From the IMG/VR virus record IMGVR_UViG_2713896901_000004, positions 1-11,546 of that record: a stretch of 11,546 nt of DNA. The stretch is one strand, 5' to 3'. The position numbers were made by a program, and so were the translations under genes. The notes beneath the pieces were generated by a model that saw only the letters and a program-made list of their open reading frames with translations, ran no database searches and had not been told where the DNA came from. Source of the stretch: a virus. Its lineage: Duplodnaviria > Heunggongvirae > Uroviricota > Caudoviricetes. Of this stretch, positions 492-11,546 are shown one piece after another. The first letter of the stretch is position 1; each line of letters opens with the position of its first letter.

Positions 492-695
492 TTACGGTGC
501 TGTTTTAAGTCCTGCCGGGATTTCGTTATTGTCCATATGAATAACTTTATCGACCGGATAACAGTTACCGGGAATTTTTTGCTCTGCCGCGGCAGTCATG
601 CATTCTTCCATTGAGTCATGTATGTCAATAACAAGATCAATCGGTTCACCAGAAACAAAAAAAACAGTCAGAACGAGTACAAATGCCGTATTCAT
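492..695 (-). CDS. Small membrane protein with N-terminal hydrophobic segment, YdfD-like by position and size (67 aa)
   Basis: Preferred start MNTAFVLVLTVFFVSG: its ATG (plus 693-695) overlaps the stop of the upstream dicB-like gene (692-694) as ATGA on the minus strand, implying translational coupling. The track ORF 492..749 starts 18 codons earlier but without this coupling. Position after dicB matches ydfD in K-12 Qin (from memory). Confidence 0.5.
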   Translation of the reverse strand: MNTAFVLVLTVFFVSGEPIDLVIDIHDSMEECMTAAAEQKIPGNCYPVDKVIHMDNNEIPAGLKTAP

Positions 696-880
696 TGCCT
701 GCATCCTGTTTGCATCAGACGTAAACGGGCCAGCATCGAAACAATGCATATTTTATTTAGCAGTTCCTGTTCGTGTTTTCTTTTATTAATGGCATCTTCA
801 GTAAATATCTGATTGCTGATAGTGACACCAATTTCAAAACAACCTTCAGACGTATTAACGTTTGGTAATAACGTTTCCAT
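692..880 (-). CDS. dicB: DicB-like cell division inhibitor (62 aa)
   Basis: Internal start of track ORF 692..985, with GAGGA 7 nt upstream of the ATG (plus 878-880). Translation METLLPNVNTSEGCFEIGVTISNQIFTEDAINKRKHEQELLNKICIVSMLARLRLMQTGCRQ matches my recollection of E. coli DicB in length and most residues. Lies downstream of the dicF-like sRNA, as in Qin. Confidence 0.8.
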   Translation of the reverse strand: METLLPNVNTSEGCFEIGVTISNQIFTEDAINKRKHEQELLNKICIVSMLARLRLMQTGCRQ

Positions 881-1049
881 TATCGCGTCCTCAACAATGA
901 ATTTTGTGATGCGGTGCCTGGTGCCTCCAGGTGACGTTAACCAGTTAACAATTAACGCCGGATACAGAGAATCCACCCATAACACTGTTTTTAGCTTTAA
1001 CTGTTCCGCGTGCGCTTAGCCGCATTCACCGCATCACAAAATTCACTTT

Positions 1050-1105
1050 AAAAAGGGCGGACATCAGTTCATGGGCAAACAGATGCCGCCAAACGTCACC
1101 AGAAA
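1050..1105 (-). ncRNA. dicF: DicF-like Hfq-dependent sRNA
   Basis: Minus-strand sequence TTTCTGGTGACGTTTGGCGG... ends in a GC hairpin (GGCGG...CCGCC) followed by TTTTT. The 5' 20 nt match my memory of the K-12 DicF seed that targets ftsZ mRNA; the 3' hairpin differs. Located between ydfC and dicB as in Qin. Ends approximate. Confidence 0.7.
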
Positions 1106-1445
1106 ATTGATAACAGAGGGCGTTGCAGCGGGGTTGTCACTTAAGCGTATGGTCAACCTGACAACCCGGTGTCCTCAACGGGGAAGGAATAACCCCGCCA
1201 TACTTACCGCCGCGCCATTTCGCGGAGTGCCACAACCGGAAGCGCACGGTCGACGAAAATTTAACGACAGGCTATCTATGAACCAGCTACCTCGCCGTGC
1301 GCTTTCGCGTTATGGTCTGACTTTTCAGGGAAATATCCTTTCAGTAAACTGTCTGTGCCGGATGCTCACCCGTGTCCGGCGCACGCACTCCACCTCACCC
1401 GTGGAGAACTCCTTAATTACCAACCTTAGCTTCGTTGGTTAGCTA

Positions 1446-1664
1446 TTAACGCGGGTATGTAATCATTCTGGCAATGCTTAATGCCGCTGCTTTTTCCAGC
1501 CTGGTGATATCCTGCTCCAGAGCGGACAGATTTTCAGCCTGCTTATCCCTGGCTTCATTGGCCCATTTCAGATCCTGCGCTGCATTAATTTTCTGGCGCA
1601 TCCACTCATAAAGTTCATCATCGGTATAGTCTGGCGCGATGATGACGGGTTCTCGTTTCTGCAT
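1446..1664 (-). CDS. ydfC: YdfC-like small prophage protein (72 aa)
   Basis: Track ORF; GAGGA 6 nt upstream of the ATG (plus 1662-1664). Translation MQKREPVIIAPDYTDDELYEWMRQKINAAQDLKWANEARDKQAENLSALEQ; size and position match YdfC of the Qin dicB operon (recall). Confidence 0.65.
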   Translation of the reverse strand: MQKREPVIIAPDYTDDELYEWMRQKINAAQDLKWANEARDKQAENLSALEQDITRLEKAAALSIARMITYPR

Positions 1665-1693
1665 ACTGATTCCTCGCGGTGCTGCTTCGCTTA

Positions 1694-1822
1694 TCAGCCG
1701 TTAGATTTTGCCGAGCTGGAAAGCGCCTGTTTAAACTCACTGAAGCTGAGAGCTTCTTCGCCTTCGGCAAGGCCTTCGAAGTATTCTTCGTAAGCCTTTT
1801 CCATGATTGTGTCGAAATCCAT
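1694..1822 (-). CDS. ydfB: YdfB-like small protein (42 aa), below the ORF-track size cutoff
   Basis: Minus-strand ORF MDFDTIMEKAYEEYFEGLAEGEEALSFSEFKQALSSSAKSNG with AGGTGAG just upstream of the ATG (plus 1820-1822) and tandem stops (TGA TAA). Fills the gap between the ydfA-like and ydfC-like genes; size matches YdfB (recall). Confidence 0.65.
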   Translation of the reverse strand: MDFDTIMEKAYEEYFEGLAEGEEALSFSEFKQALSSSAKSNG

Positions 1823-1823
1823 A

Positions 1824-1979
1824 TCACTCACCTGAGTTTCTTTCCAGCCAGCGACGCGCGCCAGATTCGGTTTTAAACGTTTTGCTTTTGGTATACGTCA
1901 TCGCGGTGAACGTGCCGTCCTGGTTTGGGAACACGCCGCATACCAGAGATTCGTTGTTACCAAGATCGATAGTATCCAT
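1824..1979 (-). CDS. ydfA: YdfA-like small protein (51 aa, DUF1391-like)
   Basis: Internal start of track ORF 1824..2084: ATG (plus 1977-1979) preceded by GAGGT at 5-nt spacing. Translation MDTIDLGNNESLVCGVFPNQDGTFTAMTYTKSKTFKTESGARRWLERNSGE; a 51-aa product matches YdfA (recall). Confidence 0.7.
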   Translation of the reverse strand: MDTIDLGNNESLVCGVFPNQDGTFTAMTYTKSKTFKTESGARRWLERNSGE

Positions 1980-2055
1980 ATTGACCTCATTTCCCCTTAA
2001 CGCCGGGTAGCGGAACTGTTTGCTGAGAACACCGTGCGGTGTCTTGATGGGTGGT

Positions 2056-2084
2056 AATTTAGTTTTCTCATGAATGTTGGTCAA
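2056..2084 (-). promoter_or_regulatory. Candidate sigma70 promoter for the ydfA-ydfB-ydfC-dicF-dicB operon
   Basis: On the minus strand: TTGACC (plus 2079-2084), 17-nt spacer, TAAATT (plus 2056-2061). An inverted-repeat motif TGAGAAAACTCA (2095-2106) lies just upstream of the -35. Confidence 0.4.
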
Positions 2085-2168
2085 GTATTTTTAATGAGAA
2101 AACTCAATATTTAATGCAAAATAAAGCCAATACATTGAAATGTAAGGCTTTAAAATTTGTGAAGGGGG

Positions 2169-2576
2169 TTACTGATGTTTGTTACGTTTGCGAGCTTCTA
2201 GTAGCTCGGTGAATAGGCGATTAAAATTCTCAACGCGGGCACGGAGTTCGCTGATTTGTGCTTGCTGCTCTGATTTTGGAAGTGCGCGATACAATCGCAA
2301 CATCTCCAACTCATCTTCCGATAAGTCTAAGGCGCTGTTGAGTGCAACTGGTGGATCTGGTGTTTTATCCTCGTCACCAAACAGTATCCAAGTTGGTGAA
2401 CATTGCAATACCTCAGCCAGGCGATGCAAATTTTGCCCGCGCGGGGCTGTATGGTCGCTTTCCCATAGTGAAATTGATGAGCCAGATACGCCAGCGGCTT
2501 TGCTTAAATCGTTTTGACTTAAACCAACCTGTTTGCGTCTTTCTCTAATTCGTTGACCTAAAGTTTTCTCGTTCAT
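2169..2576 (-). CDS. dicA: DicA-like HTH (XRE-family) prophage repressor, 135 aa, no peptidase domain
   Basis: Track ORF. N-terminal HTH (QRIRERRKQVGLSQNDLSKAAGVSGSSISLWE) and the stretch VLQCSPTWILFGDEDK match my memory of E. coli K-12 DicA; same length (135 aa). Divergent from a Cro-like gene. Confidence 0.85.
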   Translation of the reverse strand: MNEKTLGQRIRERRKQVGLSQNDLSKAAGVSGSSISLWESDHTAPRGQNLHRLAEVLQCSPTWILFGDEDKTPDPPVALNSALDLSEDELEMLRLYRALPKSEQQAQISELRARVENFNRLFTELLEARKRNKHQ

Positions 2577-2653
2577 ATTTAGATATCTTAATAACCCTTG
2601 ACTTGAGATTCCTTGAGTGATTACTATTGAGAAAACTCAACTTTGGAGGGGTG
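2577..2653. promoter_or_regulatory. Divergent dicA/dicC intergenic control region with candidate rightward promoter and operator half-sites
   Basis: Rightward TTGACT (2598-2603), 18-nt spacer, TACTAT (2622-2627). Three TTGAG direct repeats and the inverted repeat TGAGAAAACTCA (2628-2639) overlap the -10 and start region. The same 12-mer recurs at 2095-2106. Confidence 0.5.
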
Positions 2654-2881
2654 ATGTTTAAATCAGACGTAATTAATTTTTATGGGACGAAAGCCAAAGT
2701 AGCGAAAGCTGCTGGTGTTGATCCATCTGCTGTTTCTCAATGGGGGGAACTGGTTCCTGAAGGTCGCGCGATGCGCCTGCAAGAGGCGTCCGGCGGGGAA
2801 CTTCAGTACGACCCCAAAGTTTATGACGAATATCGTAAGGCAAAGCGGGCGGGGCGGTTGAACAATGAAAATCACCCCTGA
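2654..2881 (+). CDS. dicC: Cro/DicC-like small DNA-binding protein (75 aa)
   Basis: ATG at 2654 with GGAGG 4 nt upstream; the track ORF begins at an upstream TTG (2627). Translation MFKSDVINFYGTKAKVAKAAGVDPSAVSQWGELVPEGRAMRLQEASGGELQYDPKVY resembles DicC/YdaS-type Cro-like proteins (recall). Divergent from dicA. Confidence 0.75.
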   Translation: MFKSDVINFYGTKAKVAKAAGVDPSAVSQWGELVPEGRAMRLQEASGGELQYDPKVYDEYRKAKRAGRLNNENHP

Positions 2882-3416
2882 ACAGGTTTGTGAGGCTCTG
2901 GATGCCTGGGTATGTCGACCAGGAATGACACAGGAGCAGGCGACGATATTAATCACGGAAGCATTCTGGGCTCTGAAAGAACGCCCGAACATCGATGTTC
3001 AACGCGTCACGTTTAATGATGGCGAGGTTGATCAACGGGCGCTGGGCGTTAACCGGGTGAAGATATTCGAACGCTGGAAAGCTATCGACACCAGGGATAA
3101 GCGGGAAAAATTCACGGCGCTGATTCCGGCAATTATGGAGGCTATCCGGATCAGCGATTTCAGGTTGTATTGTGAAATTACTGACGGAAAAAGCATTACG
3201 TACATGATCGCCGGGTTAAACAAAGAATATGGCGATGTGGTGGAGTCCGGGCTGCTTTTTGCGGATCCATCTGTTGTGGAACGTGAGACTGACGAGCTTA
3301 TAGAAAAAGCTATTGCTTTCAAGCATGCGTATCGTCAGCAATATCAATATTACTTTGCAGATAAACAAATGTCTGCCAGGGGTTCGTATGAGTATCGATG
3401 CACTACGATGGGCTAA
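2865..3416 (+). CDS. YdaT-like prophage protein occupying the CII position (183 aa)
   Basis: Track ORF; its start overlaps the end of the Cro-like gene by 17 nt. The motif REKFTALIPAIMEAI resembles YdaT-family proteins that follow Cro-like genes in Rac-type prophages (recall, unverified). Confidence 0.55.
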   Translation: MKITPEQVCEALDAWVCRPGMTQEQATILITEAFWALKERPNIDVQRVTFNDGEVDQRALGVNRVKIFERWKAIDTRDKREKFTALIPAIMEAIRISDFRLYCEITDGKSITYMIAGLNKEYGDVVESGLLFADPSVVERETDELIEKAIAFKHAYRQQYQYYFADKQMSARGSYEYRCTTMG

Positions 3417-7843: not shown

Positions 7844-7961
7844 TGCTGCGGGTGCTTGAGGCTATCTGCCTCGGGCATGAACACCAACGGCAGATAGAGA
7901 AAAGCCCCAGTTAACATTACGCGTCCTGCAAGACGTTTAACATTAATCTGAGGCCCAATCT

Positions 7962-8174
7962 ATGCTTCACAAACGTAGGTTAGCCTCTTACGTGCCGAAA
8001 GGCAAGGAGAAGCAGGCTATGAAGCAGCAAAAGGCGATGTTAATCGCCCTGATCGTCATCTGTTTAACCGTCATAGTGACGGCACTGGTAACGAGGAAAG
8101 ACCTCTGCGAGGTACGAATCCGAACCGGCCAGACGGAGGTCGCTGTCTTCACAGCTTACGAACCTGAGGAGTAA
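7962..8174 (+). CDS. mok: Mok-like reading frame: in-frame N-terminal extension of hok (70 aa)
   Basis: Track ORF; ATG 7962 with GAGG 8 nt upstream. It shares frame and stop with hok, as mokC does with hokC in E. coli K-12 (recall). Confidence 0.55.
   Translation: MLHKRRLASYVPKGKEKQAMKQQKAMLIALIVICLTVIVTALVTRKDLCEVRIRTGQTEVAVFTAYEPEE
8019..8174 (+). CDS. hok: Hok/Gef-family type I toxin (51 aa)
   Basis: ATG 8019 with AAGGAGA 8 nt upstream. Translation MKQQKAMLIALIVICLTVIVTALVTRKDLCEVRIRTGQTEVAVFTAYEPEE is a canonical Hok sequence, closest in my memory to HokD/RelF. Confidence 0.85.
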   Translation: MKQQKAMLIALIVICLTVIVTALVTRKDLCEVRIRTGQTEVAVFTAYEPEE

Positions 8175-9010: not shown

Positions 9011-9997
9011 GTGGAGCCGGAACCGAAAAGCATGCGTAATCTGCCGTCCGGGGTCGTTCCTGCCGTTCGCCAGCCGCTGGCGGAGGATAAATCATTACTG
9101 CCATTTTTCAGCGACGAACGAGTGATTCGTGCTGCTGGTGGCGCTGGCGCATTGTCTGACTGGTTACTGCGCCATGTTAAATCCTGCCAGTGGCCACACG
9201 GCGATTATCACCACAGTGAAACCGTCATTCACCGTTATGGTACCGGCGCAATGGTGTTGTGCTGGCACTGCGACAACCAGCTGCGTGACCAGGCATCCGA
9301 ATCACTCGAGCAACTTGCTCATCAAAACCTGTCAGCATGGATGATTAACGTCATCGGTCACGCAATAAGCGGTACGCAGGAGCGTGAATTATCTCTGGCT
9401 GAATTATCCTGGTGGGCGGTCCGCAATCAGGTGGCGGACGCGCTACCGGAAGCGGTATTACGTCGTTCGCTGGGGTTGCGTGCGGAAAAAATCCGCTCAA
9501 TGTACCGTGAAAGCGACATCGTACCGGGAGAGCAGACCGCCACCAGCATACTGAAGCAGCGCACAAAAAATCTTGCGCCGCTGCCTCACGCCCACCAGCA
9601 AAACCCGCCACAGGAAGAGGCGGTGGTCAGCAAAACCCCGCCACAGGAAGAGGCGGTGGTCAGCATTGCCGTTGATCCGGAGTCACCGGCTCAGTATCTC
9701 CAGCGCCAGAAACCACAACGGGAAGAGATGCCTGTATACACGCGCTGGGTAAAAACGCAGAAATGCATGACGTGCGGTAATCAGGCAGATGATCCGCATC
9801 ACATCATTGGTCATGGACTGGGAGGGATGGGAACAAAGGCTGATGATTTGTTTGTTATTCCGCTGTGCCGTAAATGCCATAGCGAACTACACGCCGGGGT
9901 AAAAGATTTTGAAGAAAAACACGGCAGCCAGCTGTTGTTGCTGATTCGTTTTTTAATGCACGCGAGAAATTCGGGTGTCCTGAAGTGGAAAGCATGA
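9011..9997 (+). CDS. ydfU: DUF968/YdfU-like protein with C-terminal Cys/His (HNH-like) motif (328 aa)
   Basis: Track ORF with GTG start at 9011; an alternative ATG is at 9032. C-terminal CMTCGNQADDPHHIIGHG...PLCRKCHSELH is a Cys-x2-Cys...His-His...Cys-x2-Cys-His arrangement typical of DUF968 proteins (recall). Contains a tandem 30-bp duplication (PPQEEAVVS twice). Confidence 0.65.
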   Translation: MEPEPKSMRNLPSGVVPAVRQPLAEDKSLLPFFSDERVIRAAGGAGALSDWLLRHVKSCQWPHGDYHHSETVIHRYGTGAMVLCWHCDNQLRDQASESLEQLAHQNLSAWMINVIGHAISGTQERELSLAELSWWAVRNQVADALPEAVLRRSLGLRAEKIRSMYRESDIVPGEQTATSILKQRTKNLAPLPHAHQQNPPQEEAVVSKTPPQEEAVVSIAVDPESPAQYLQRQKPQREEMPVYTRWVKTQKCMTCGNQADDPHHIIGHGLGGMGTKADDLFVIPLCRKCHSELHAGVKDFEEKHGSQLLLLIRFLMHARNSGVLKWKA

Positions 9998-11258: not shown

Positions 11259-11334
11259 GGCCCTTTAGCTCAGTGGTGAGAGCGAGCGACTCATAATCGC
11301 CAGGTCGCTGGTTCAAATCCAGCAAGGGCCACCA
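11259..11334 (+). tRNA. tRNA-Ile2-like, anticodon CAU (lysidine type), 76 nt
   Basis: Cloverleaf folded by hand: acceptor GGCCCTT/AAGGGCC, D-arm GCTC...GAGC, anticodon loop CTCATAA, T-loop TTCAAAT, 3' CCA. Closely resembles my memory of E. coli ileX. Met versus Ile2 cannot be decided from sequence alone. Confidence 0.8.
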
Positions 11335-11414: not shown

Positions 11415-11490
<76 letters not shown>

Positions 11491-11493
11491 TAT

Positions 11494-11546
<53 letters not shown>

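Follow-up and report, generated by a model that had tools for sequence, protein, structure and literature searches.

In the window analysed here, a stretch of 11,546 nucleotides from a tailed-phage (Caudoviricetes) record, a preliminary description had pointed to one short inverted repeat that recurs at two control points on either side of a dicA-like repressor gene. The locus raises the question of what this repeat is, which protein it would serve, and how it relates to the immunity regions already described in P22 and in the K-12 prophage Qin. Judged from sequence comparison, the repeat most probably acts as operator in an immunity switch of the P22 type that has a specificity of its own, and its copies are very probably operators shared by the DicA-like repressor and its Cro-like partner.

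The repeated motif and its genetic setting

The 12-mer TGAGAAAACTCA occurs identically at 2095-2106 and 2628-2639, as the preliminary description had it, and the match extends one base further to the 13-mer TGAGAAAACTCAA (2095-2107 and 2628-2640), which is embedded in a 21-nt stretch with 86% identity between both copies. The core of the motif is a 5-4-5 inverted repeat, consisting of two 5-bp arms (TTGAG and CTCAA) and a 4-bp A-tract centre (AAAA). Besides these two copies, we found a third one, absent from the preliminary description, that lies inverted at 2058-2071 and differs by one mismatch (minus strand, ATGAGAAAACTAAA). An exact word of at least 13 nt common to the intergenic regions 1980-2168 and 2577-2653 appeared in 3 of 3000 dinucleotide-preserving shuffles, giving a p of about 0.001 for a chance 13-mer common to the two regions. 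Single half-sites are also concentrated in the right-hand region (TTGAG at 2603, 2613, and 2627, and CTCAA at 2636), amounting to four in the 38 bp of 2603-2640, whereas at their density over the window as a whole ~0.1 would be expected in 50 bp. The degenerate pattern WTKAGNNNNCTHAW has four matches in the whole 11.5 kb, every one inside the two control regions; the pattern was built from these very sites, and the informative part of this search is that it has zero matches elsewhere. A putative fourth copy of the motif, GAGAAAACT in codons 2-5 of dicA (2562-2570), does not fit the 24-25-bp register and disappears in Buttiauxella with a Lys to Met change, and was rejected as a coding coincidence. 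An RNA element over the motif was likewise rejected, as Rfam gave nothing there.

The genes that the preliminary description had guessed around the motif (DicA-like, Cro/DicC-like, the ydfA operon, and dicF/dicB) were all recovered from Pfam and Rfam matches and from identity to K-12 DicA. The DicA-like repressor (2169-2576, minus strand; 135 aa; WP_001003379.1; Pfam HTH_3, 1.2e-16) matches the DNA-binding domain of P22 C2 over its first 72 residues (structures 1ADR and 2R1J; E 2e-15), and is 55.6% identical to K-12 DicA overall, the identity rising from 43% in the part preceding the LQCSP motif to 62% in the part that follows. Pfam detected HTH families only in this 135-aa protein and no S24 self-cleavage domain, and this domain content assigns the repressor to the DicA subclass, which is under antirepressor control in Qin (PMC10448788). 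Divergent from the repressor gene, across a 77-bp intergenic region with TTGACT-18-TACTAT, is the Cro/DicC-like gene (2654-2881, plus strand; 75 aa; WP_000476986.1; P22_Cro 1.1e-17; P22 Cro structure 1RZS, 1.9e-12), which is preceded by GGAGGGG at 2645-2651 and followed by a gene of the YdaT family (CII-equivalent; 2865-3416; Pfam). Downstream of the repressor gene and on the same strand, a leftward operon (692-1979, minus strand) under a PL-equivalent promoter carries ydfA (DUF1391; 1824-1979; 1.5e-29), ydfB (1694-1822), ydfC (1446-1664), a DicF-like RNA (1055-1104), and dicB (692-880; DicB 4.3e-39), all on the minus strand. The DicF-like RNA scores 43.5 bits (E 8.5e-8), below the Rfam gathering score of 48, and is therefore missed by a default scan. 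Between it and dicB there is also a sub-threshold match to STnc100 (848-1057, minus strand; 39 bits vs. 47).

A promoter consensus scan of 1400-3000 returned exactly two promoter-like sites, and these agree with where the preliminary description had placed both 12-mer copies relative to promoters. The rightward promoter (2598-2627, plus strand; the PR or dicCp equivalent) consists of TTGACT at 2598-2603, an 18-nt spacer, and TACTAT at 2622-2627, and the leftward promoter (2056-2084, minus strand; the PL or dicBp equivalent) of TTGACC at 2084-2079, a 17-nt spacer, and TAAATT at 2061-2056. Directly after the stop codon of the dicA-like gene is a hairpin with a U-run (UUUAUUUUG, 2123-2150, minus strand; -12.3 kcal/mol, z = -4.07), the stem of which is kept in relatives; it is probably the terminator of the dicA-like gene, and would keep read-through transcription from dicA away from the leftward promoter.

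Several other elements were observed along the way. The leader of the leftward operon (1995-2050, minus strand) is conserved even across immunity types and contains a hairpin (ACACCGCACGGTGT) and CATCAAG-type boxes, with GAAAGA-loop hairpins present there in more distant relatives; it may be a nutL/boxB-like element, and the predicted fold of 1985-2056 is no better than that of shuffles (z = 0.01). At the end of the cro-like gene, spanning the ydaT start codon, TTGAACAATGAAAATCAC at 2858-2875 resembles the YdaT operator TTGATTN6AATCAA of the prophage CP-933P, which has the same relative position (PMC9986795), and may be a PRE-type control site. A duplication of ~24 nt at about 9590-9650, within a DUF968-like ORF (9011-9997), gives rise to the repeated peptide PPQEEAVVS. 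Further along are a sok antitoxin RNA with a hok-type ORF at 7850-8024 and, after the Q antiterminator gene, three tRNA genes (11259-11331, 11415-11487, and 11494-11546, the last cut by the end of the window), sok/hok and tRNA genes being usual cargo of lambdoid prophages.

Probable operator positions compared with phage P22

The immC region of phage P22 is organized like the window, with divergent repressor (C2) and cro genes. The N-terminus of the window repressor is 47% identical to P22 C2 over 72 aa, the Cro proteins are homologous, and OR and OL align base by base, with identical -35 hexamers and the same PL -10 (TAAATT). In an alignment of OR and OL from the window, phage mEp460, K-12 Qin, and P22, a common backbone that includes the CAT of the repressor start is evident; the rightward -35 is invariant in all four, P22 shares the leftward promoter hexamers at the corresponding place, where Qin reads TTGACC-17-TAATCT. 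Every site is matched by a palindrome with 5-4-5 geometry. Along this backbone the window has three strong sites (2627-2640, 2094-2107, and 2058-2071), which we take to occupy the P22 OR1, OL2, and OL1 positions respectively, and two weaker candidates (2603-2616 and 2578-2591), presumably at the OR2 and OR3 positions (operator names after Poteete et al., 1980). All five are mapped without strand.

The strong site at 2627-2640 (TTGAGAAAACTCAA) overlaps the final base of the rightward -10 as well as the position where the cro-like transcript is expected to begin, and aligns with the palindrome at the OR1 position of P22 (ATTTAAGTGTTCTTTAAT) and with that of Qin (TTGTTAGTTATGACTAACAA, referred to as Oc). 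The candidate weak operator at 2603-2616 (TTGAGATTCCTTGA) sits in the -35/spacer of the rightward promoter, and has a perfect left half and a poor right half (TCAAG). It matches P22 CTAAAGATTCCTTTAG column for column in the alignment, including an ATTC centre common to both. This is where the extra TTGAG half-sites of the preliminary description are found; they are indeed present, as part of a site at the OR2 position, and its right half, unlike that of P22, has degenerated such that the two TTGAG words form a direct repeat. The third site of this region, the candidate operator at 2578-2591 (TTTAGATATCTTAA, also the Qin Oa position), adjoins the start codon of the dicA-like gene, overlaps a possible -10 (TAAGAT, 2590-2585), fits the pattern WTKAGNNNNCTHAW, and aligns with P22 AGTTAAGTCATCTTAAAT. 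The centre-to-centre distances are 25 bp from 2578-2591 to 2603-2616 and 24 bp from there to 2627-2640, compared with 25 and 23 bp in P22 by hand count. Among the sites in the OR region, the strong one at 2627-2640 is the only site beyond doubt, the two others being weaker.

On the left side, the strong site at 2094-2107 (ATGAGAAAACTCAA) is one of the two copies in the preliminary description, and 10 bp separate its end from the leftward -35, which lies downstream. In the leftward (ydfA-dicF-dicB) promoter, the strong site at 2058-2071 overlaps both the spacer and the -10. As in P22, the two OL sites flank the -35; unlike P22, which has OL1-3, the window has no clear OL3. The copy upstream of the ydfA promoter to which attention was drawn before is thus real, but the main repression site of this promoter is probably not this one but the previously missed copy over the -10.

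The operators of P22 likewise have 5-4-5 geometry. The P22 repressor leaves the central 4 bp uncontacted and binds an A-tract centre best (4.3 nM vs. 14.4 and 57.6 nM for two other centres assayed; PMC4267663). In the window the centre is AAAA in all three strong sites, and ATTC and ATAT in the weaker candidates at 2603-2616 and 2578-2591 respectively. A-tract centres favouring tight binding can explain why identity among the strong copies extends over 12-13 bases and not over their arms alone.

The half-site differs between the two systems, being TTGAG in the window and TTAAG in P22. The helix-3 segment reads SGSSISLWES in the window repressor and SNVAISQWER in P22 C2, with changes in the recognition helix at positions 32, 33, 34, 37, and 40. 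Near the minor groove, the window repressor has Ala44 and Arg46 in place of Glu44 and Asn46, and Asn46 of the P22 repressor, the counterpart of Arg46, is located at the mouth of the minor groove. Further differences are that the window repressor, at 135 aa, has a different C-terminal part with no S24 self-cleavage domain detected, unlike P22 C2, and that the leftward operon consists of ydfABC-dicF-dicB instead of gene 24 and its followers.

Conservation, co-variation and the proteins that may bind the sites

Conservation was examined in 85 loci whose repressors are >90% identical, representing 52 distinct sequences. The three strong sites have on average 0.43 minor alleles per column compared with 5.6 in their 12-bp flanks (Mann-Whitney p = 1.4e-7), and a permutation with three random 14-bp windows within the promoter zones gave p = 0.001. 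The same permutation over the whole intergenic DNA was marginal (p = 0.053), since the transcribed leader and the terminator are conserved as well. Among the 52 distinct relatives, two of the 14 columns vary in 2627-2640, three in 2058-2071 (where the flanks 2051-2056 and 2072-2078 are highly variable), and four in 2094-2107, where constraint is weakest among the strong sites; the weaker candidate at 2603-2616 also varies in 4/14 columns, and that at 2578-2591 is invariant in 52/52. The preliminary description had held that absence of the motif from close relatives with the same repressor would speak against an operator; the motif is present in them. It also extends to two Buttiauxella prophages with repressors 75-76% identical and a recognition helix resembling that of the window (helix-3 segment SDSSISLWES), one (L006) with the motif at all three positions and no 14-mer changed at more than one or two bases, and the other (L007) with the motif at two positions, those visible on its short contig.

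This type of control region is widespread. The 751-bp region is 100% identical in a prophage beside rspB in E. coli EC21Z-048, and 797 of 5426 complete E. coli genomes (~15%) have a match covering at least 80% of it. Phages mEp460 and HannyBb, which are deposited as complete genomes, have an immunity region ~91% identical, and mEp460 carries the motif at all three positions.

In a set of 13 diverse loci, the palindrome found at the fixed promoter positions tracks the helix-3 segment of the repressor. Half-sites of TTGAG are found with SGSS or SDSS (the window, mEp460, and Buttiauxella), TTAAG with SNVA (P22), and TTAG-type half-sites with SHVS or SHVT (Qin, Citrobacter, Yersinia, Rosenbergiella, and Symbiopectobacterium). 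The recognition helix of the Cro-like protein co-varies with the operators as well. One locus, L008 of Citrobacter braakii, has an intermediate repressor helix (SHATISLWES) and half-sites of TTGAG, TTAAA, and GTTAG/TTAAG over the three positions, and may represent an intermediate stage in the evolution of operator specificity. DNA homology between the window and K-12 Qin ends at about 2050-2062, the edge of the OL1-position site, and the Cro-like protein is nearly identical to K-12 DicC in its C-terminal half, while its helix-turn-helix part is not shared. These two mosaic junctions show that the immunity cassette reaches from the middle of cro to OL, with its operators travelling along.

The DicA module of Qin has the same gene order as the window, a repressor of equal length (135 aa), the same leftward operon including dicF and dicB, and operators at matching promoter positions, with its OL pair spaced 35 bp apart compared with 36 bp in the window (the positions of Om, Oa, and the dicBp operators in Qin were inferred from the K-12 sequence). 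In Qin, DicA represses dicBp 22-fold (PMC10448788), and dicC repression together with dicA activation proceeds from Oc, binding to which was inferred by Yun et al. from in vivo assays (PMC3441716). The sites themselves are different. At the Oc position the window has TTGAGAAAACTCAA and Qin TTGTTAGTTATGACTAACAA, and Qin has a TTAGC-type palindrome at the OL2 position and a TTAGT-type palindrome at the OL1 position. The Oc sequence of Qin, TTGTTAGTCATAACTAACAA, is not present at the homologous position of the window, where a different palindrome is found, which argues for a homologous module of different specificity and not for the K-12 immunity type. The DNA-binding part of the repressor is only 43% identical between the two and, given this difference and that of the operators, the window and Qin are predicted to be heteroimmune. 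Further, mEp460 and HannyBb, phages with complete genomes on deposit, share the immunity type of the window, whereas Qin is a defective remnant.

A more distant comparison is offered by PaaR2/YdaS/YdaT of CP-933P in E. coli O157:H7, a lambdoid switch with a non-cleavable CI-like repressor, in which the Cro-like protein protects overlapping PRM/PR operators, PL has matching operators, and YdaT replaces CII (PMC8630535, PMC9986795). Its operator consensus differs from that of the window (GTTTAGTAA-type 18-bp palindromes, four at OR), and PaaR2 is only remotely related and is encoded in an operon with a toxin-antitoxin pair.

The preliminary description left it between DicA and the Cro-like protein, or both, as to which would bind the shared operator. 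An operator is supported by position homology, conservation, and co-variation; since both recognition helices co-vary with the motif, the comparison does not assign the sites to the DicA-like protein, the Cro-like protein, or both. The sites could accordingly be operators used by one of the two regulators alone, with the other reading different bases or the weaker sites at the OR2 and OR3 positions. The joint co-variation is compatible with this, and so is the in vivo assay in which DicA of Qin bound Oc and not the OR2- and OR3-position sites Om and Oa (PMC3441716), which further implies that 2603-2616 and 2578-2591 in the window may not be repressor sites. We nonetheless consider use by one regulator alone improbable. 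DicA of Qin represses both dicC and dicBp, which calls for repressor sites at both promoters (PMC10448788, PMC3441716), and in CP-933P the repressor and Cro protect overlapping operators (PMC8630535). Overlapping protection by repressor and Cro is a feature of lambda and P22 as well.

It is highly improbable that the repeat has no present binding function and is simply left over from an ancestor shared by both promoter regions, or has arisen by chance in AT-rich DNA. OL and OR clearly derive from a P22-like ancestor and the regions are AT-rich, but the chance probability is ~0.001, the sites vary far less than the sequence directly beside them, and they change with the repressor helix yet hold their position; moreover, the immunity region is carried (~91%) by the viable phages mEp460 and HannyBb, in the former with the motif at all three positions. 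Binding by another factor, either YdaT (2865-3416) or a host nucleoid protein drawn by the A-tract, is hardly credible: a YdaT-family protein is encoded in the window and the YdaT repeat of CP-933P, TTGATTN6AATCAA, also starts with TTGA and ends with TCAA (PMC9986795), but YdaT was rejected as the binder on both spacing (TTGA-N6-TCAA in the window vs. TTGA-N10-TCAA for YdaT) and location (the YdaT site is found where the cro-like gene ends, not at PR/PL, PMC9986795, for which 2858-2875 is the better candidate), and co-variation with the repressor and Cro helices would be unexpected for a host factor.

A possible mode of action and its significance

For an operator shared by the DicA-like and Cro-like proteins, the following mode of action can be proposed. 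A dimer of the DicA-like repressor would bind sites of 14-18 bp with the form (T/A)T(G/T)AG-N4-CT(C/A/T)A(A/T), its recognition helix reading the TTGAG half-sites, and the uncontacted AAAA would favour binding via a narrow minor groove. By homology to P22, in an 18-bp site the dimer would make its contacts at positions 2-7 and 12-17, with none to the central 4 bp. On the left, 2058-2071 would cover the spacer and -10 of the ydfA-ydfB-ydfC-dicF-dicB promoter, probably helped by 2094-2107, which is 36 bp away beyond the -35. On the right, a repressor at 2627-2640 would cover the -10/+1 of the cro-like promoter and, by analogy with Oc of Qin, may activate the repressor gene. With 2058-2071 and 2627-2640 both occupied, RNA polymerase would be excluded from both early promoters, which would silence cro, the replication genes, DicF, and DicB, and would fit the published behaviour of Qin.

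The Cro-like protein would presumably act at 2578-2591, over the likely dicA promoter, and thereby turn off repressor synthesis. The possible -10 of this promoter (TAAGAT) lies 8 bases before the dicA ATG, and there is no Shine-Dalgarno sequence nearby, which suggests a near-leaderless repressor message; a dicA-like promoter with this -10 is a possible reading. Leaderless messages are documented for lambda cI and for paaR2 of CP-933P (PMC8630535).

A more specific version of the switch can also be put forward, although we regard it as doubtful. In this version the switch would run on a single strong right operator, which would block the cro-like promoter and, from ~57 bp upstream of its start codon, activate the repressor gene; the site at the OR2 position would have decayed to a direct repeat, with cooperativity left to the two OL sites, and specificity would reside in the change from TTAAG to TTGAG together with an obligatory A-tract centre read by Arg46. 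If true, it would represent a naturally rewired, minimal P22 switch.

The link between immunity control and dicB expression that the preliminary description proposed is supported here, but it is not new as such, since the PL/PR logic has already been described for Qin (PMC10448788, PMC3441716). What is new is the operator sequence of a widespread immunity type, the design itself being documented for Qin and P22. The 12-mer appears in the searchable literature in unrelated human, fish, and vaccinia papers only, with no operator description for this immunity type, and mentions of mEp460 there are limited to prophage annotation. PMC6915034 gives no operator data. While the current understanding of lambdoid switches is unchanged, the result is a predicted five-site, two-promoter operator map for the type that phages mEp460 and HannyBb share with ~15% of complete E. 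coli genomes. The locus also represents a naturally occurring variant, with half-sites of TTGAG instead of TTAAG, of the repressor-operator specificity studied in detail in P22.
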